42,058 nt of DNA from Candidatus Liptonbacteria bacterium. Its GTDB lineage: Bacteria; Patescibacteriota; Minisyncoccia; UBA6257; 2-01-FULL-56-20. This document shows positions 1-42,056 of this stretch, one piece after another. Below the pieces are notes generated by a model. The model did no database searches, was not told the DNA's origin, and saw only the letters and a list, made by a program, of their open reading frames with translations. Position 1 is the first letter of the stretch. Every line of letters starts with the position of its first letter. Both the position numbers and the translations under genes were made by a program. The stretch covers positions 1 through 42,058 of the forward strand of contig JAHFLJ010000003.1 in the NCBI GenBank assembly GCA_023244935.1. Reading direction: 5' to 3'.

Positions 1-1
1 G

Positions 2-169
2 TATCTCAAAGGCGTCGGCTGGGTTAGCTGGCGCTGGCAAGAACACGAAGACGGCGACCTTCAGAAGCCGTTCGGCACAGAAAAATTGATGAACCTCGAT
101 ACGATTGTTTGGGAGATGCCCGGAGAGTTCATCCGCAACGTTGAGCTCTGCGAGCCAATCATCAGGTAG
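2..169 (+). CDS. Possible 3' end of a CDS truncated by the window edge (hypothetical protein); alternatively the 3' end of a structured RNA
   Basis: Frame starting at position 2 is open to TAG at 167-169 (YLKGVGWVSWRWQEHEDGDLQKPFGTEKLMNLDTIVWEMPGEFIRNVELCEPIIR*), followed immediately by a terminator. The segment is GC-rich and also forms hairpins. Confidence 0.4.
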   Translation, partial: YLKGVGWVSWRWQEHEDGDLQKPFGTEKLMNLDTIVWEMPGEFIRNVELCEPIIR

Positions 170-176
170 TTACTAT

Positions 177-204
177 CCGGACAGCGATGCTGTCCGGTTT
201 TTTT
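177..204 (+). terminator. Rho-independent terminator
   Basis: CCGGACAGC-gat-GCTGTCCGG (9 bp) followed by T7. Confidence 0.85.
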
Positions 205-247
205 ATACTTGTTTTGTCTTTATAGACAAAAATACTATAATTGAAAG

Positions 248-718
248 ATGGTTATATACATCGGAGCGGATCACCAAGGATTTAATTTAAAAGAAGCGAT
301 AAAGCCATTTTTAATGGATCAACTTTATGAAACGGAAGACGTTACTCCTGTATTTAAAGACGGAGATGACTATCCGGACGTCGCATCCGCAGTTGCCAAA
401 AAAGTTAGATATAACCTCGACAATAGCCGAGGAATCATAATCTGCGGTTCCGGCACCGGCGTAGATATTGTCGCGAATAAGTTCGATAAAATCCGTTGTG
501 CATTAGGATTTTCTCCGGATCAGATTTTTGATGCTAGGAATGACGACAACGTAAACGTCTTGGCATTACCGGCGAGTTTCGTCGATACTGAGGCAGCAAA
601 AAAAATAGTTGAAGTATTTTTGCAAACAAAATTTGCCGATCACGAAGATCGATTCAAAAGAAGAATCTCAAAAATTTTAGAAATAGAAAGAAACCGGGAA
701 GGAGTGGGGGATAACTAA
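248..718 (+). CDS. rpiB: Ribose-5-phosphate isomerase B (RpiB/LacA/LacB family)
   Basis: IGADHQG, DDYPD, GIIICGSGTGV, ANK..KIRCA and ARN.DNVNVL motifs. Confidence 0.93.
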   Translation: MVIYIGADHQGFNLKEAIKPFLMDQLYETEDVTPVFKDGDDYPDVASAVAKKVRYNLDNSRGIIICGSGTGVDIVANKFDKIRCALGFSPDQIFDARNDDNVNVLALPASFVDTEAAKKIVEVFLQTKFADHEDRFKRRISKILEIERNREGVGDN

Positions 719-731
719 ACGCGCAGCGCGC

Positions 732-832
732 GACCTATAACAGATTGCTGATGACTAATCACGAAACCAAGAAAATTCGGTTTCTTTTTGGATCTTGTTA
801 TGAGTTATTTGTCAGCGGTTATAGGTCTTTTT
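732..832. repeat. Heptad-periodic inverted repeat element (long imperfect hairpin, T-tract at 3' end; probably also terminates rpiB)
   Basis: Left arm ACCTATA ACAGATT GCTGATG ACTAATC; right arm TATGAGT TATTTGT CAGCGGT TATAGGT; outer GACCTATAAC/GTTATAGGTC pair perfectly. Confidence 0.75.
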
Positions 833-838
833 CAGGAG

Positions 839-866
839 TTGACAGATTGGTTATACATGGTATAAT
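839..866 (+). promoter_or_regulatory. Sigma70-type promoter for non-coding unit 1
   Basis: TTGACA (839-844), 16-nt spacer, TG-n extended -10, TATAAT (861-866). Confidence 0.85.
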
Positions 867-872
867 ATCCTC

Positions 873-1810
873 ACTTTCGCTTAAGGAGGTAACTCATAGC
901 GAAGTAGAATTTTGAAAAGAAGGGAAAAGTCAGTCTATCAGGCCACGACCCACTCGAAGTACTAATCGTGCCAGAGGAGGGGCTATGCCCGAGATAACTG
1001 GGGCTGTCAGGTAGGCCGCAATTACCTGGGAGGTCGGCTGAGGTCATCGACGACCTAAGACCTCGAAGAAACGTTGCAGCTTCAGCAGCTGTGACACAAC
1101 CAAAAATTCGACGCGTGTCACCCCGGAAAAAACGGAGGGATAATGACTCGAATGACTGGGGCCAGCTAGGAGGGCCAAAATACTCCTGGCCGAACCGGGT
1201 AGGGAAGTTTACTTCCACAATGGTTCGAACCTGCTTGACGCTGGGCTGGCTAGTCCTCGGACAAAGTCAGTGCCAGGAAAAACTCGCCGAGTGAAAGGTA
1301 AGCGTGAGAAAATTCGGTTAGGTTCGCCGCTGGTAGCGACGGCGTAAAACATTCGGTACATCATCCGCGAACTCGAACTCAGCCAGGGTGACTGAAGTCT
1401 CCGCTCGCGGCGGGGCCGCCGACATGCCCTCCCCGAGGGAGTCGTCACGCTGGTTCCGGTGGGTGCAGCTCTCCATCTAGATGCAAAAGCTGCAAGGATA
1501 GCACTTTGAAGAAACGTTCGGCGCTGGTACCGACGCCATTAGCAGCCTAGCCGGCTGTTCGGTACACCACATACCAGGGGCCCTCTCCTCGTCGACCGGC
1601 GAGGAGGTCAGAGCGATGCCCCCCAGACCAGCCCAAAGCTGGCCTTAACGCGAGCAACAGGAGTTTGAAACCATGAGGTTTGTCCCTCCGCGACGTATCC
1701 CTTTCTTCTGGAAAGGCGAATGGTCCCGAGAGACACCCTTGGTGGATATTCCACGGCCTTAAGAGGCTAAAGCTCGCAACCGCCCCGGCCCCCAGAAATG
1801 GGGGCTTTTT
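873..1810 (+). ncRNA. Putative large structured non-coding RNA, unit 1 (~940 nt, family unassigned)
   Basis: Bounded by consensus promoter and terminator; no convincing long ORF; GC-richer than flanks; dense hairpins, e.g. GAG-GTAA-CTC 886-895, CAGGTA/TACCTG 1008-1028, GTGACAC/GTGTCAC 1091-1121, GCTAGGAG/CTCCTGGC 1165-1190, TGCAGC/GCTGCA 1464-1494, CTCCTCGTC/GGCGAGGAG 1585-1606, CCTTTC/GAAAGG 1700-1716. Confidence 0.65.
1787..1810 (+). terminator. Rho-independent terminator of unit 1
   Basis: GCCCCCA-GAAA-TGGGGGC followed by TTTTT. Confidence 0.88.
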
Positions 1811-1817
1811 ACTACTA

Positions 1818-1845
1818 TTGACAAATAAAATGTATGTGCTATAAT
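1818..1845 (+). promoter_or_regulatory. Sigma70-type promoter for non-coding unit 2
   Basis: TTGACA (1818-1823), 16-nt spacer, TG-n extended -10, TATAAT (1840-1845); starts 7 nt after the unit 1 terminator. Confidence 0.85.
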
Positions 1846-1851
1846 ACTAAT

Positions 1852-2440
1852 ATCCTCAAAGAAAGGGGTGATGCCCACAAAGCATAAGCACTTTAAAAGG
1901 TAGATAAAGCAACCAGTCAAAGTCCGCAAGCTCCGGCTCAATCGAACGGCTCCATCCTCAATTAGGGATTGGACGCCGAGAGTCGGATGATCGTAGCGCC
2001 TTCCAAACGAAACGGAGGGCACGGGGTCAAGCCCGAGAAGAGCTCGAAACTCTACTTGGGAAGTCCTTCGCAAGTAGCGGGGGCAAGGCGTGGTAATGAC
2101 TCGATTGACTGAGGCCGTCAAGCAGGCCTAATTGCTTGAGAGGTTGACTGGAGTCGCATACATTTGGTTCATGAACCGGTCGCGACTCTAACCTTAAAGA
2201 TTTGCCTTGCGGGTCAGTCCCTGCATGCGCACAACCCTTCCACCGGCTGGTGTGGCGGAAACGCCTAAGTCAGCTGGAATCGAGGACCCCAACAGTTCGA
2301 CCAGGGGCAAATGGTTGAACAGAAGGAAAGCATGACGCTTTCATCTTCGCCGCTCGCGCCGACGGTATAAAATATCGGTGCTTCAGACGCAAGCATGTGT
2401 ACATGCCGTTTACCCCCTACGTCAATGGGGGTATTCTTTT
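1852..2440 (+). ncRNA. Putative large structured non-coding RNA, unit 2 (~590 nt, family unassigned)
   Basis: Promoter- and terminator-bounded; no + strand ORF of 60 aa or more in the track; hairpins GCCTTCC/GGAGGGC 1998-2020, ACTTG.GAAG/CTTC.CAAGT 2054-2075, TCAAGCA/TGCTTGA 2118-2139, nested AGGTT..GAGTCGC..GGTTC/GAACC..GCGACTC.AACCT 2141-2194, GGCG-GAAA-CGCC 2254-2265, GAAAGC/GCTTTC 2326-2342, GCGCCGA/TCGGTGC 2356-2381. Confidence 0.65.
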
Positions 2441-2467
2441 ATTCATTCGCCAAGCAGGCGTTTTTTT
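2411..2467 (+). terminator. Tandem intrinsic terminators of unit 2
   Basis: TACCCCC/GGGGGTA + TTCTTTT (2411-2440), then CGCC-aagca-GGCG + T7 (2448-2467). Confidence 0.75.
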
Positions 2468-2511
2468 ATTTCCACAAGTAGTATTTATATTTACCGTGGT
2501 AAACTAAATGC

Positions 2512-3150
2512 ATGGAGGTAATTCCGGCAATCAATTGTCATTTAAATGATACCGAGTGCGTAGAAGCAAAAGTTAAAACTGCCGAAATTTTGGACGGCTG
2601 GGTTCATTTAGATATCGCCGATGGAAGATTCACATACAATAAAACATGGAATTCACCGGAGGAGTGGCGAAGGTTCGGTAAAAATCTGAACTTGGAAGTT
2701 CACTTAATGGTCGAAGAGCCACTTGAGGCGGCACGCGAATGGTTGCTGGTTGGCGCAAAGAGGATAATAGTTCACCTGGAAGTTTTAGATTTAGATTTAG
2801 CCGACAGAATTATTGCCTTGGTCAAGCAATACAAAGCTGAGCCGATTTTGGCGTTTAATCCGGAAACTAGAGTCGATTCTAATCCGGATATCGAGTCGCG
2901 ATTTTTATCGTTTTTAGTGTTATGTGTCCATCCTGGCCTTGCCGGACAAAATTTTTTACCGCTCAATCTCGAAAAAATCTCCGCGCTAAAGAAAATGTAT
3001 CCGCAAGCAACTATAGAGGTCGACGGGGGAGTGAATAAAGATACAGGAGCATTGGCTAAAAAAGCCGGCGCAAATATTCTCATCGCCGCCTCCTATATCT
3101 TTGAAAGTAGTAATCTGCAGGGTGCGTATCAAGAGCTAGTCTCACTTTAG
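2512..3150 (+). CDS. rpe: Ribulose-phosphate 3-epimerase
   Basis: HLDIADG, EVHLMV, V.PGLAGQ.F and EVDGGVN motifs. Confidence 0.93.
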   Translation: MEVIPAINCHLNDTECVEAKVKTAEILDGWVHLDIADGRFTYNKTWNSPEEWRRFGKNLNLEVHLMVEEPLEAAREWLLVGAKRIIVHLEVLDLDLADRIIALVKQYKAEPILAFNPETRVDSNPDIESRFLSFLVLCVHPGLAGQNFLPLNLEKISALKKMYPQATIEVDGGVNKDTGALAKKAGANILIAASYIFESSNLQGAYQELVSL

Positions 3151-3266
3151 TCAGCAACCTCATTTTTAAACTAGCCTTGTCTGACATACAGTATTTTTTA
3201 TTGTTTTATGGTATAATAATATCAATAATAATAACCCCCAGTCCGGGTGAAAATATAAGGTTAAAT

Positions 3267-4904
3267 ATGTCGTTTATAAAAAAAGTTTTAGGCGTGTTCT
3301 TTGTTGGAATGCTTTTAGTCGGCGGTGTCGCAAAAGCGGATAGTATGGCCGATTTGCAAGCGCAGATTACCTCACTTATGGCTCAAATAAAGGTTTTGCA
3401 GGCAAGAATAGGTGAACAGGGTGGTGGGAGTGTATCTTGGTGTCATAATTTTAATACAAACATAAGGGCGGGAGATCAGAGTTCTGAGGTTTCTGAATTG
3501 GTCAGAGCGCTTGTTAAAGAAAATTTTTTGAATCAAAACGAAATGTTTCAGGATGGGCGAAGCGAACTAAATTTCGATGAGCAGATTGCTTCGGCCGTAA
3601 CCGGTTTTCAACAGAAATACGCTAGCGAAATATTAACTCCAATCGGACTTAAATACGGAACCGGTTTTGTAGGCGTCGGAACCAGAGCAAAACTTAATAA
3701 GCTTTATGGCTGCGCCAATGTGATGCCTCCAATCGCATGTACCATGGATGCAAAACAATGCTCGGACGGAACTTACGTCAGCCGCACCGGACCAAGGTGC
3801 GAATTCGCAAGCTGTCCAATATATAAATCTTTAACCGTTGTTTCGCCGAATGGCGGAGAGACTTGGGTTAAGGGAACAACGCAGACAATCAAGTGGCAAG
3901 ATATCTCAATCGTTCCACAGTGCCCAGCCGGAGCTGATTGCGTGAGCCCTGCTCCGAAGTCATATGACATAAAGTTAGTCGCATATGCCACTCCGTGTAC
4001 CGGAAATATTTGCCCTATGTCTTTAACTCGTTTGCCATATACAATTGCGAAAAATGTTTCTGGCAGTTCTTATAATTGGGAAGCGGGTAGGATTTGGGAT
4101 GACAGCCAATACGCGCCAGCCGGAGCATATTTAGTGCAAGTTTGTATCGCCGGTTCAGATGTCTGCGACTCAAGCGATTCATATTTCAAGATTACTTCTA
4201 TTTCGAATATAGGATTGCCAATCGTTTCCGGAGTTTCCGGTCCGACAACATTGGCAGTCGGTCAGCAGGGAACTTGGACGGTTAGCGCCTCAGATCCTAA
4301 TAATGGAAATCTATATTATTCTGTCGTGTGGGGTGATGAATCAAGCGTGCCATGCGCTTCCGGAGGTGCCTGCGCAACCGCAAGCGCTCAATATCAACAA
4401 ACCGCAACATTCACGCATACCTATAGCAATGACGGTTACTATTTACCAAAGTTTATGGTAATGAATACAAGCGGTGAGAGTGTCGCTACAACTTTAAGTG
4501 TCAGAGTGGGATCCACATCTACATCTATTCCGACACCATTAGATACAATTCAGGTAACCTATCCTCAGGCAACGATAGAATTGCTCAGAGGGTCGATGGT
4601 AAATCTTTCTTGGACGCAAAGTAATGCTTCGAGGAATGTTGACTTGAAGCTTACCTCCGCCGGTGGTATGACTAATTTTGCCTCGTATAATATTGCTTCC
4701 GGGATAGCTCCGAAAACAATTAAAGATCAGACATATTCTTGGACTGTTGGGAATATAGTCTCAGCGGCTGTTAGCACAGCCTCAATACCGGACGGCGAAT
4801 ATTATTTCAAAGTTTGTTACTCCGGTACGGATGTTTGCGAATCCGGTAAATATACTCTTAAGATAATCCCTCTTAGGACCATACTTCCTCCCATACAGCA
4901 GTAA
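3267..4904 (+). CDS. Secreted multidomain surface protein (signal peptide, coiled coil, peptidoglycan-binding-like domain, Cys-rich module, Ig/PKD-like domains)
   Basis: Start moved to ATG 3267 (MSFIKKVLGVFFVGMLLVGGVAKA signal peptide); AVTGFQQKY...GTGFVGVGTRAKLN PG-binding-like motif; CTMDAKQCSDGTYVSRTGPRCEFASCP; LTVVSPNGGETW; YSVVWGDE...FTHTYSNDGYY PKD-like. Confidence 0.75.
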   Translation: MSFIKKVLGVFFVGMLLVGGVAKADSMADLQAQITSLMAQIKVLQARIGEQGGGSVSWCHNFNTNIRAGDQSSEVSELVRALVKENFLNQNEMFQDGRSELNFDEQIASAVTGFQQKYASEILTPIGLKYGTGFVGVGTRAKLNKLYGCANVMPPIACTMDAKQCSDGTYVSRTGPRCEFASCPIYKSLTVVSPNGGETWVKGTTQTIKWQDISIVPQCPAGADCVSPAPKSYDIKLVAYATPCTGNICPMSLTRLPYTIAKNVSGSSYNWEAGRIWDDSQYAPAGAYLVQVCIAGSDVCDSSDSYFKITSISNIGLPIVSGVSGPTTLAVGQQGTWTVSASDPNNGNLYYSVVWGDESSVPCASGGACATASAQYQQTATFTHTYSNDGYYLPKFMVMNTSGESVATTLSVRVGSTSTSIPTPLDTIQVTYPQATIELLRGSMVNLSWTQSNASRNVDLKLTSAGGMTNFASYNIASGIAPKTIKDQTYSWTVGNIVSAAVSTASIPDGEYYFKVCYSGTDVCESGKYTLKIIPLRTILPPIQQ

Positions 4905-8559: not shown

Positions 8560-10202
8560 TCAAAGAGCTGTCAATCACCAAAAAAATATTTCTGGGGCTA
8601 TTTTTATCGGTAGTATTTGTATATTGCTTTAATGCTTTTAAAGAGCCCGATTCTTTTTATCATCTGAAAGCCGGGCAGGTAGTTCTGGAGACAGCGTCAA
8701 TACCAAATTCCGACCCATTCTCATTTGTCGCGAATGGCGCGGAGTGGGTTGCTCACGAATGGCTGTCTGAGGCGATTTTATTTATTTCCTATAAGGTCGC
8801 CGGATTCTGGGGTGTGATTTCTTTCGTGGCGCTACTCGGAGCGCTAACCAGTTTTATTATTTATTTAATATGTAGAATCAGGGGAGTCAATTTCTATATA
8901 TCTCTTCTGGGAATATTAATTTTAAATGCCTTAACTTTTGAATTATGGATCGGTAGACCGCAAATATTTTCATATTTATTCACGGCTCTTTTCGTATATT
9001 TATTGGAAAGGTTCAGGATCGACGGACGAAAAATAAACCTTATTTTGATTGCCTTAATTACCCTTATTTGGGCGAATATGCATGCCGGGTTTATCCTAGG
9101 CTTAGCGATAGTCTTTGCTTATCTCTTTGGAGGCATCTTGAATCACCATTTTAAACTTCAGTCGGCCCTGGATAAATTAAAACTTAGAAATTTATCCTTT
9201 TTATTTATCTCCTTGCCATTTATTGCCCTGCTAAATCCAAGTAGTTATAAAATATTCACTTACAGCTACGTTATCTTACCGGCAATAGAAAAATTGGGAG
9301 TAATGGAGTGGTATTCGATTTTAGACTATTTGTATCTGAATGAAACCGTCATCTATCTCGCTCAGATGGTCATTTTCGGACTTTTAGGAATCTATTGGTA
9401 TTTATCCAAACGAGAGAATAGAGATTTTATCCTGGTCAGCTTAATCTTGGGCATTTCGGTTTTGCCGTTCATATCCATTCGCCACATCGGATTTTGGCCG
9501 GTAGCTTTAATTCCTTTTGTGCTGGAAGCGGTTCATAGATTTGTTTTTGTGAGAATTGAAAATAGAATTAATTCTAAAGACTTCGGAATACTCCTCGGAA
9601 TCGTTTTATTGCTTTTTAGCACTCCCAAGTTCTTTTCTTTCCCAAAAGAATATTACAACCGTCTCAGCGTTCCGATAGGCGGAGCTGAATTTATTAAGCG
9701 CGAGAATTTAAAAGGTCCTATTTTCAATCTGTATAATGACGGCGGGTTTTTAATTTGGAATTTATACCCGAGCGAAAAGATATTTATAGATGGGCGTTCC
9801 GAAGTCTACAGTCAAGATAAGCTGGATGAATATCTAAGTATTCTTGGTGGAGGAGAAAATTGGCGGGAGCTGGTCTACGATAAATATAAGTTGCAGTATT
9901 TTTTCATATCCTATAGACGCAATCCGGAGAAGTTGCTTCCGCTGATTCGCGATTTGGAGAATGACAGGTGGCGTCTTGTGTACTGGGACGACCTATCCGT
10001 AATTTATGTTAAAGATGATGTTCAAAACAAAGAAATTATTAAAAAATTTGCCCTAAATTATGTCGGACCATTCAGGAACGCGCTAAATCTGCCGGAAGAC
10101 GACAAAAAGCAGGCCTTTGCTGAGTTGCAGGGCTTACTCGGTAGGATAGAGAACTCGGAGATAATCCAGCAATATGCCAGACAGCTAATGCAAGGCAGGT
10201 AG
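8556..10202 (+). CDS. Polytopic membrane protein, probable GT-C-fold glycosyltransferase-like
   Basis: Many TM helices; first-loop D..YHLKAG and HEWL, RPQ, WANMHAGF, C-terminal FIDGR domain (family assignment is inference). Confidence 0.6.
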   Translation: MIKELSITKKIFLGLFLSVVFVYCFNAFKEPDSFYHLKAGQVVLETASIPNSDPFSFVANGAEWVAHEWLSEAILFISYKVAGFWGVISFVALLGALTSFIIYLICRIRGVNFYISLLGILILNALTFELWIGRPQIFSYLFTALFVYLLERFRIDGRKINLILIALITLIWANMHAGFILGLAIVFAYLFGGILNHHFKLQSALDKLKLRNLSFLFISLPFIALLNPSSYKIFTYSYVILPAIEKLGVMEWYSILDYLYLNETVIYLAQMVIFGLLGIYWYLSKRENRDFILVSLILGISVLPFISIRHIGFWPVALIPFVLEAVHRFVFVRIENRINSKDFGILLGIVLLLFSTPKFFSFPKEYYNRLSVPIGGAEFIKRENLKGPIFNLYNDGGFLIWNLYPSEKIFIDGRSEVYSQDKLDEYLSILGGGENWRELVYDKYKLQYFFISYRRNPEKLLPLIRDLENDRWRLVYWDDLSVIYVKDDVQNKEIIKKFALNYVGPFRNALNLPEDDKKQAFAELQGLLGRIENSEIIQQYARQLMQGR

Positions 10203-12820: not shown

Positions 12821-12892
12821 GCGCTCTTAGCTCAGTGGTAGAGCGTTTCATTGACATTGAAAAGGTCGCAGGTTCAATCCCTGCAGGGCGCA
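12821..12892 (+). tRNA. tRNA-Val(GAC)
   Basis: Cloverleaf: GCGCTCT/AGGGCGC acceptor, TTTCA-TTGACAT-TGAAA anticodon arm, GCAGG-TTCAATC-CCTGC T arm; CCA not encoded. Confidence 0.95.
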
Positions 12893-12970: not shown

Positions 12971-13042
12971 GGGCATGTAGTTCAGTGGTAGAACGCTGTC
13001 CTGATAAGACAGAGGTCGAAGGTCCGATTCCTTCCATGCCCA
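12971..13042 (+). tRNA. tRNA-Ile(GAT)
   Basis: GGGCATG/CATGCCC acceptor, CTGTC-CTGATAA-GACAG anticodon arm, GAAGG-TCCGATT-CCTTC T arm; CCA not encoded. Confidence 0.93.
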
Positions 13043-41984: not shown

Positions 41985-42056
41985 GCCACCTTAGCTCAGC
42001 GGTAGAGCGCCACTTTTGTAAAGTGGATGTCCCCGGTTCAAGCCCGGGAGGTGGCT
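41985..42056 (+). tRNA. tRNA-Thr(TGT)
   Basis: GCCACCT/AGGTGGC acceptor, CCACT-TTTGTAA-AGTGG anticodon arm, CCCGG-TTCAAGC-CCGGG T arm. Confidence 0.95.

Follow-up and report, generated by a model that had tools for sequence, protein, structure and literature searches.

What is encoded in the gap between rpiB and rpe in the 42,058-nucleotide (nt) stretch of Candidatus Liptonbacteria DNA analyzed here (hereafter referred to as the window)? The window corresponds to contig C12 of genome G000, which comprises 712,058 bp in 31 contigs, has a G+C content of 41.9%, and is 100% complete as judged by marker genes. Within it, the end of rpiB at position 718 and the start of rpe at position 2512 are separated by 1,793 nt, for which an earlier reading made from the sequence alone (the sequence-only reading) had proposed two independently promoted units specifying large structured RNAs, possibly of a new class. 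Only a few bacterial noncoding RNAs (ncRNAs) longer than 500 nt have an elaborate conserved structure, among them OLE, GOLLD, ROOL, HEARO, and a handful more, and each of the large structured RNAs has opened new biology, most recently in the form of RNA-only cages; to our knowledge, almost nothing is known about ncRNA in Patescibacteria. Based on the analysis described below, we propose, with a probability of roughly 0.78, that the gap holds two separate, transcribed, structured, noncoding RNA genes (units 1 and 2) of new families. The units are of a known general kind, that of the large structured bacterial ncRNA, and are fast evolving and, so far, restricted to one genus.

Promoters, terminators, and composition of the two units

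The gap harbors two cassettes, each of which begins with a promoter of the TTGACA-N16-TGnTATAAT design and ends with an intrinsic terminator (Table 1), the promoters and terminator hairpins being found where the sequence-only reading had placed them. A promoter scan of positions 1 to 4000 returned 10 promoter-like sites, compared to 5.1 ± 2.8 in shuffled sequences, and the only 12/12 matches with a TG before the -10 box within these first 4 kb are those of units 1 and 2. Perfect TTGACA-N16-18-TATAAT sites number only nine in the whole 712-kb genome; two of these are the unit promoters, and another, on contig C22, is located approximately 250 nt upstream of the 16S rRNA. The two units, therefore, carry rRNA-grade promoters.

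Further elements of the sequence-only reading were recovered. The decamers which the units were said to share, AATATCCTCA in their start regions (positions 864 and 1849) and AAACGGAGGG in their bodies (positions 1130 and 2010), each occur at these two sites only, and the GNRA-capped stems were located as described. The G+C contents of unit 1 (56.1%) and unit 2 (53.0%) exceed those of rpiB (39.9%), rpe (43.2%), and the window (42.1%), and the reported count of 44 G+C among the 60 positions from 1381 to 1440 was reproduced. The shared purine-rich run at the 5′ ends held in part, as it is present in both window units but is not conserved, being seen in 3 of the 6 units examined.

Distribution of the units and history of the locus

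BLAST searches with each unit against 61 genomes, consisting of G000 and 60 relatives, of which 36 belong to its family and 24 to further families within the order, matched only G000, in which the units are single copy, and a congener, G001. A scan of 185,579 species genomes for exact motifs recovered the true context only in the G001 contig (the remaining 10 of 11 stretches represent chance matches in G+C-rich genomes without flanking similarity), and an equivalent scan of metagenomes added a single contig, L024, the other 9 of 10 stretches being chance matches or unrelated (7 of the 9 represent one repeated coding sequence). Both units are present in G001 and in L024, beside rpiB and/or rpe, and each possesses its own terminator and a perfect promoter of the same design. 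In these two relatives, the units are in the opposite order, the unit 2-like element coming first and the unit 1-like element adjoining rpe.

In other genera of the family, tblastn searches with RpiB and Rpe located rpe downstream of rpiB, at a distance of no more than 1.5 kb, at 25 of 28 loci, and at 22 of these 25 loci the ends of the rpiB and rpe alignments lie within approximately 150 nt. From this adjacency it follows that the units represent an insertion in this genus. The unit pair was thus inserted into an ancestrally contiguous rpiB-rpe arrangement in one genus, and the insertion was followed by a swap in unit order, an exchange of modules, and fast divergence outside conserved islands, with base pairing kept.

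A covariance model of the unit 1 3′ domain (R1) matched only G000 and G001 convincingly among 125 genomes of the family and only G000 among 151 genomes of the order, a sample which does not include G001. Weak R1 hits in G141, G113, G198, G217, and G173, with per-genome E values of 1e-6 to 0.02, were not accepted. The hit in G113 is located inside a long open reading frame (ORF), that in G141 lies beside a tRNA-like stretch, and those in G217 and G173 are weak, partial alignments. The best hit outside the genus (31.5 bits; L104 1501-1641, minus strand, G198:C19) was judged to be unrelated. The stretch in question, from another family of the order, is a hairpin-rich 5′ leader of approximately 140 nt upstream of an ORF and may itself be a cis-regulatory element.

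The rpiB-rpe region also displays other lineage-specific content. In genome G004 of genus g4, a unit designated K1 (G004:C2; L062 5915-6640, minus strand) directly follows rpiB; it is approximately 700 nt in length, ORF poor, and 60% G+C, and it contains three internal GGAGGAA...GGUUUC...UAGC repeats and a terminator. K1 produced no Rfam hit, and its folding z-scores are -4.40 (sense) and -3.02 (antisense). Its promoter has the same 18 fixed bases (TTGACAAAT-N10-TGCTATAAT) as those of unit 2 and the unit 2 homolog of G001. As a candidate homolog, K1 was rejected on the basis that its similarity to the two window units is not significant (best E value, 1.4), and it is treated as an analog; it was not found in the other 124 genomes of the family, including the congener G073. 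K1 may represent a further large ncRNA at this hotspot, analogous to the units but independent of them. The G001 locus (G001:C40) harbors, in the interval from rpiB to the units, two additional small ORFs of 98 and 111 amino acids (aa) on opposite strands (L009 2037-2333, minus, and 1696-2031, plus), which are absent from the window locus. Two features of L024 are likewise absent from the window, namely, an additional long hairpin and a second hairpin resembling a terminator, both located between the unit 1 terminator and rpe (9400-9485, minus strand).

Coding potential

In agreement with the sequence-only reading, no credible long ORF is apparent. The longest ORFs inside the gap are 67 aa on the sense strand and 120 and 115 aa on the antisense strand, and reading TGA as glycine (code 25) yields no sense-strand ORF above 123 aa. 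A Pfam search with 10 ORFs (E ≤ 0.1), among them a 299-aa antisense ORF of G001, returned no families, and the frame of this antisense ORF is interrupted in both the window and L024. The unit 1 homologs of G001 and L024 are identical at 720 of 892 positions and differ by 14 indels, none of which is a multiple of three in length; their 172 substitutions are distributed 54/62/56 by position modulo three and are, therefore, devoid of 3-periodicity. Of the contrary outcomes which the sequence-only reading had envisaged, decayed protein genes were not encountered, given the lack of a Pfam match and of a conserved frame, and neither was a codon-like substitution pattern, given the substitution phases and the excess of compensatory changes described below.

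Folding and compensatory base changes

Folding z-scores were calculated against dinucleotide shuffles on both strands. The sense-strand values are far from zero, ranging from -4.67 to -5.15; the sense and antisense scores are -4.80 and -1.76 for window unit 1 (W1), -4.67 and -3.81 for window unit 2 (W2), -5.15 and -4.03 for G001 unit 1 (G1), and -4.90 and -3.27 for G001 unit 2 (G2). Compensatory change was assessed by folding one sequence and scoring the substitutions of the other on its pairs relative to 2,000 permutations, a procedure which avoids circularity. For unit 1 (G001 versus L024), 12 to 13 compensatory pairs were observed, compared to 3.7 to 3.9 expected, with 0 to 1 of the 2,000 permutations as high; for unit 2 (window versus G001), 19 pairs were observed, compared to about 10 expected (5 to 9 of 2,000 as high). 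The antisense controls displayed no excess (8 versus 4.1 and 12 versus 10.3 to 10.7).

In a three-sequence alignment of the unit 1 3′ domain (A3), 94% of cells are paired, and 10 of 39 pairs have changed on both sides, compared to 4.1 ± 1.5 in shuffles (0 of 500 as high) and 0 to 4 in slid controls. The covariation that the sequence-only reading had anticipated was thus found as a 2- to 3-fold excess of compensatory changes on the sense strand only, among few sequences.

Both units are assembled from shared modules

Units 1 and 2 are partly paralogous, both being assembled from two shared modules, to which the repeats D1 and D2 correspond. Module A consists of GGCY, 2 to 4 nt, and a 6- to 8-bp hairpin with a GGCC-led, A-rich loop, followed by a nested stem. 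Three copies are present in the window, three in G001, and two in L024, and the loop-leading GGCC and upstream GGCY occur in all eight. Seven of the eight copies are fully paired as scored, with at least five different stem sequences; copy G1a forms 5 of 8 pairs, or, by eye, 6 of 6 pairs one register over (not rescored). The MAFFT alignment of module A (A4) is out of structural register. The stem of copy 2 covaries with the G001 and L024 copies, and the nested stem located 3′ of the module A hairpin also covaries. The fact that GGCC always has an upstream GGCY partner favors an intramolecular pseudoknot, and module A would, as judged by its geometry, most likely be an H-type pseudoknot in which GGCY pairs with the loop GGCC, the A-rich remainder representing loop 3.

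Module B comprises two parts, a hairpin with flanking UUCG and a UGGUA loop and, 3′ of this hairpin, UUCGGUAC; a covarying hairpin is sometimes inserted between them. In the unit 1 3′ domain, a GGGGC/GCCCC helix encloses a covarying hairpin and a GAGCGAW internal loop. Part of unit 2 (positions 2323-2365; query positions 484-526) matches the unit 1 homolog of G001 (G001:C40:350-392) and not the unit 2 homolog, from which it is concluded that modules have moved between units.

Table 1. Features of the rpiB-rpe gap, in window coordinates
Feature	Position	Strand	Details
Hairpin with T-run between rpiB and unit 1	760-792	+	Follows rpiB; read from the sequence
Unit 1 promoter	839-866	+	TTGACA 839-844; 16-nt spacer with TGn 858-860; TATAAT 861-866
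Unit 1	873-1811	+	Predicted transcript of ~940 nt; start predicted from the -10 box
Module A copy 1	1002-1065	+	GGCU 1002-1005; 6-bp hairpin 1008-1028 with GGCC-led loop; nested stem 1031-1065
Module A copy 2	1160-1226	+	GGCC 1160-1163; 7-bp hairpin 1166-1189 with loop GGCCAAAAUA; nested stem 1192-1226
Module B copy 1	1323-1359	+	37-nt block identical in all three genomes
Unit 1 3′ domain	1513-1672	+	Module B copy 2 with inserted covarying hairpin; CCAAA-capped hairpin
Unit 1 intrinsic terminator	1787-1811	+	Hairpin 1787-1806, then TTTTT
Unit 2 promoter	1818-1845	+	TTGACAAAT-N10-TGCTATAAT; 12/12 with TG
Unit 2	1852-2440	+	Predicted transcript of ~590 nt; predicted start
Unit 2 conserved core	2037-2198	+	85% column identity with G001; pairs kept
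Module A copy 3, in unit 2 core	GGCC 2113-2116; hairpin 2118-2139	+	
Unit 2 core stem	2150-2157/2182-2188	+	
Degenerate module B copy in unit 2	2346-2381	+	5′ context matches the unit 1, not the unit 2, homolog of G001
Unit 2 terminator	2414-2440	+	Hairpin 2414-2431, then TATTCTTTT
Second hairpin with T-run, 3′ of unit 2 terminator	2447-2468	+	

Representation in RNA libraries

Contigs without differences from the window were found in RNA library X6 over positions 994-1509, 1509-1775, and 2117-2317, and library X15, from another study, holds a contig over positions 2118-2324. As judged by RNA-library contigs identical to both units, the units are probably transcribed, with DNA carry-over being possible. 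The high expression put forward in the sequence-only reading may be surmised from the grade of the promoters and from these contigs, which give no level. The X15 contig, which derives from a relative, is without exactly U2154 and A2185, mutual partners in the unit 2 core stem; its depth is 2.7, so this loss may represent an error. The start of contigs from two studies at 2117/2118, where a DNA contig continues, provides a weak hint of an RNA end at this position. Neither library holds a contig on rpiB or rpe, a lack of coverage which is not counted as evidence.

Divergence around conserved islands

At the nucleotide level, G000 and G001 are 91.9% identical in RNase P RNA and 79.2% identical in rpiB, compared to 47.6% in unit 1 and 59.0% in unit 2. 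The module B block of 37 nt is invariant where rpiB and rpe are only 79 to 80% identical, and the pattern of identity thus indicates that constraint is concentrated in islands and in pairing.

Divergence of this speed (48 to 59% identity), a G+C content of 53 to 56% in a 42% G+C genome, and the variability of a locus in which rpiB and rpe lie within approximately 150 nt at 22 of 25 other-genus loci and in which a different G+C-rich unit, K1, follows rpiB in G004 would all be expected of nonfunctional foreign or decaying DNA, i.e., a G+C-rich dead gene or mobile remnant behind strong promoters. We nevertheless regard this explanation as improbable. The 37-nt stretch of perfect identity in three genomes is embedded among neighboring coding DNA of approximately 80% identity, the compensatory excess is specific to the sense strand, and perfect promoters and terminators have been kept on each unit through rearrangement; furthermore, no similarity to a frame, Pfam family, phage, or plasmid points to a source of such DNA.

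Comparison with known RNA families and mobile elements

A cmscan search of the window against 4,227 Rfam families at gathering thresholds returned only three tRNAs, far from the locus; these tRNA genes are situated at positions 12821-12892, 12971-13042, and 41985-42056, the nearest being approximately 10 kb from the units (12.8, 13.0, and 42.0 kb). ARAGORN detected nothing in positions 700-2600. In a cmscan search of the same interval at E ≤ 10, ten matches were obtained with E values of 1.2 to 8.6, all far below gathering scores, and the homologous stretch of G001 produced five weak Rfam matches, none of which is to a family matched weakly in the window.

Individual models were also searched against the genome at E ≤ 1. 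No match was found for GOLLD (RF02032), which is also absent from the cmscan results for the window and for 700-2600, nor for ROOL (RF03087), for which 14 control genomes were likewise empty and no positive control was available, nor for OLE (RF01071), with no positive control among 14 control genomes. HEARO (IS605-type omega RNA; RF02033) and group-II-D1D4-1 (RF01998) were similarly without a match, the latter search being accompanied by the lack of an ORF with a Pfam family. RNase P RNA (RF00010; C18:31235-31719, 91.1 bits) and transfer-messenger RNA (tmRNA) (RF00023; C31:53222-53590, 115.1 bits) are encoded elsewhere than at this locus. It is, therefore, apparent that the units belong to no known family, as had been suggested. 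A literature search for large ncRNAs in Saccharibacteria found nothing in the material covered, from which supplements are excluded; in the available part of PMC5737381, to which its supplementary motif lists do not belong, only the small lysM-TM7 motif is listed.

The lineage-specific insertion, rearrangement, and fast evolution of the units, together with the two additional small ORFs that lie between the units and rpiB in G001, would be compatible with the RNA part of a mobile element or defense system (a guide, bridge, omega-type, or retron ncRNA or an antitoxin RNA) whose protein partner is located elsewhere or has been lost. Such an identity appears just as improbable as that of decaying DNA, as neither the HEARO nor the group II model found a match and no transposase, reverse transcriptase, or nuclease ORF, nor one of the IscB/TnpB type, is present in or beside the units in the three genomes, the flanking genes being rpiB and rpe. 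Moreover, the units are present as a single copy, and phage records, plasmid records, and viral contigs contain no similarity to them.

Weight of the evidence for the two proposed RNA genes

The assignment of the units as two RNA genes of new families has to be weighed against a number of observations which speak against it or restrict it. The carriers of homologs amount to three genomes or contigs only, and the suggestion of a possible new RNA class, which is upheld by the lack of a known family and by the existence of homologs, is accordingly tempered by a distribution so far confined to one genus. Covariation is derived from 2 to 3 sequences per unit and from paralogous modules, for which reason R-scape-grade statistics are not possible, and the proposed module A pseudoknot is without covariation because GGCY and GGCC are nearly invariant. 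Negative z-scores were likewise obtained for the antisense strand (-1.76 to -4.03), though they are weaker in each case, and unit identities so far below that of RNase P RNA imply that much of the length is weakly constrained. The RNA-library contigs denote presence in a library, from which level, strand, and ends are not readable, and the transcript ends are predicted rather than mapped. Finally, no special complementarity between the units was seen, the computed unit 1-unit 2 duplex energies of -356 and -371 kcal/mol being within the range obtained with shuffled partners (-340 to -380 kcal/mol).

Two further explanations concern translation and regulation in cis. Runs resembling a Shine-Dalgarno (SD) sequence occur near the 5′ ends of both units (AAGGAGGU at 883 in unit 1 and AAAGGGGUGAUG at 1862 in unit 2), and in unit 2 and its G001 homolog such a run is followed by ATG, as would be expected of mRNAs or dual-function RNAs for small peptides. 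This possibility is deemed very unlikely: unit 2 would specify a peptide of 10 aa in the window and one of 24 aa in G001, with only the first two residues in common; in unit 1, the SD-like run is not followed by a start codon; just 3 of the 6 units examined contain the SD-like element; and such peptides would leave over 90% of each unit untranslated, although it is this part that bears the conserved, covarying regions. The 3′ end of the 16S rRNA was looked for on contig C22 and was not found there. Least plausible of all is a long cis-regulatory leader (riboswitch-like or attenuator) for rpe or pentose-phosphate genes, as would be suggested by a position between two such genes on the strand of rpe and by K1 likewise following rpiB, given that each unit is closed by an intrinsic terminator, with another hairpin and T-run ahead of rpe, that unit 1, not unit 2, adjoins rpe in L024, that the 22 of 25 other-genus loci with closely spaced rpiB and rpe have no room for such a unit, and that the size is far above that of known leaders.

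Possible function and relationship to other large RNAs

As RNA genes, units 1 and 2 share the generic properties of large ncRNAs: they are longer than 500 nt, possess their own promoter and terminator, lack a conserved ORF, and exhibit compensatory base pairing (in few sequences). They are unusual in the strength of their promoters, in their modular paralogy and rearrangement, and in how fast they change. OLE, which is highly expressed, occurs in extremophiles of the Firmicutes, adjacent to partner genes such as oapA, and its sequence is well conserved. At approximately 600 nt, it resembles the units in being a large, chromosomally encoded, structured RNA; the units differ in the lack of a match to its model and of such a partner gene beside them and in diverging to 48 to 59% identity within a genus. 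With CsrB/RsmZ they have in common repeated short hairpin modules in one independently transcribed RNA and sequence that changes fast around conserved repeats, but the repeats of the units are modules of 40 to 100 nt, three per genome, rather than GGA loops, and the genome is without a CsrA or Hfq match. The RNase P RNA, tmRNA, and 16S rRNA of G000 resemble the units in a G+C content above the genome mean and in stable-RNA anatomy, as well as, for the 16S rRNA, in a consensus promoter, whereas they are encoded elsewhere in the genome, and RNase P RNA is 91.9% identical between G000 and G001, in contrast to 47.6% and 59.0% for the units.

In a reduced genome of 0.7 Mb, this RNA pair occupies 1.6 kb and uses two of the nine consensus promoters. 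Unlike housekeeping RNAs, the pair is found in one genus, has shuffled modules, is rearranged between species, and evolves much faster than RNase P RNA, with its helices kept. The units, therefore, offer a tractable case for the study of the birth and remodeling of large RNAs and of the role of abundant structured RNAs in Patescibacteria.

ROOL and GOLLD share with the units a length of 0.6 to 0.9 kb, many short helices, pseudoknot-like elements, and the lack of an ORF and of a known protein partner. In the available part of the source, the 3′ region of GOLLD is described as better conserved and its 5′ region as variable (10.1101/2024.12.08.627333), as is the case in unit 1. The same part of the source places GOLLD and ROOL in phages or prophages, frequently next to tRNA arrays (10.1101/2024.12.08.627333). 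The units, by comparison, are chromosomal, are located between housekeeping genes of one genus with the nearest tRNAs approximately 10 kb away, and have neither a match to these models nor a phage context or phage match.

With regard to function, the units might act as abundant, stable scaffold RNAs whose repeated modules would be presented either to a partner protein or by each RNA to the other, a suggestion that we put forward tentatively, as a possibility that falls well short of even odds. A sponge of the CsrA or Hfq type is unlikely, given that searches of the genome detected neither family: CsrA (PF02599) had no match in a search which did match in three control genomes, and Hfq (PF17209) had none. 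Extended complementarity of the units to the rest of the genome was not found beyond a shared terminator.

By analogy with OLE, ROOL, and GOLLD, the two RNAs could also assemble themselves, as subunits, into a particle that consists only of RNA or is rich in it, a reading which we consider doubtful. In such a particle, the palindromes GGCC (module A loops) and GUAC or GGUACC (module B) would serve as symmetric kissing contacts between chains, and units 1 and 2, which are always co-located, would form a hetero-oligomer. As reported in the available part of the source, OLE forms a dimer, and a palindromic GGCC loop provides a symmetric kissing contact in an OLE loop and in a GOLLD loop (10.1101/2024.12.08.627333); in the units, GGCC heads the loop of 8 of 8 module A copies. 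Were a particle to be formed, it would account for two of the nine rRNA-grade promoters of an ultrasmall episymbiont, and the fast, lineage-specific evolution would represent the coevolution of contact surfaces or a host-facing role.

Other promoter-led units and neighboring genes

A 30-nt near-copy of the unit 1 terminator (G000:C17:27037-27066) closes another promoter-led unit of the same genome. This unit (G000:C17:26580-27070; locus L084/L102), with a G+C content of 61% in a 42% G+C genome, consists of a perfect promoter of the same design, an SD sequence and a very basic, G+C-rich ORF of approximately 55 aa, approximately 190 nt of G+C-rich sequence, and the unit 1-like terminator; similar units composed of a promoter and a G+C-rich small ORF occur in G073 and G004. 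At G000:C28:13305-13660 (locus L083), a perfect promoter precedes approximately 350 nt of hairpin-rich sequence and a terminator, the G+C content over the 600 nt past the promoter being 0.56. Its sole Rfam match is a weak one to the SurA small RNA (22.6 bits, compared to a gathering score of 100), and the locus may encode one or two further unannotated small RNAs. Downstream of rpe, positions 3177-4904 of the window encode a protein of 575 aa which has a hydrophobic segment at its N terminus; a 593-aa relative is encoded at the same position in L024.

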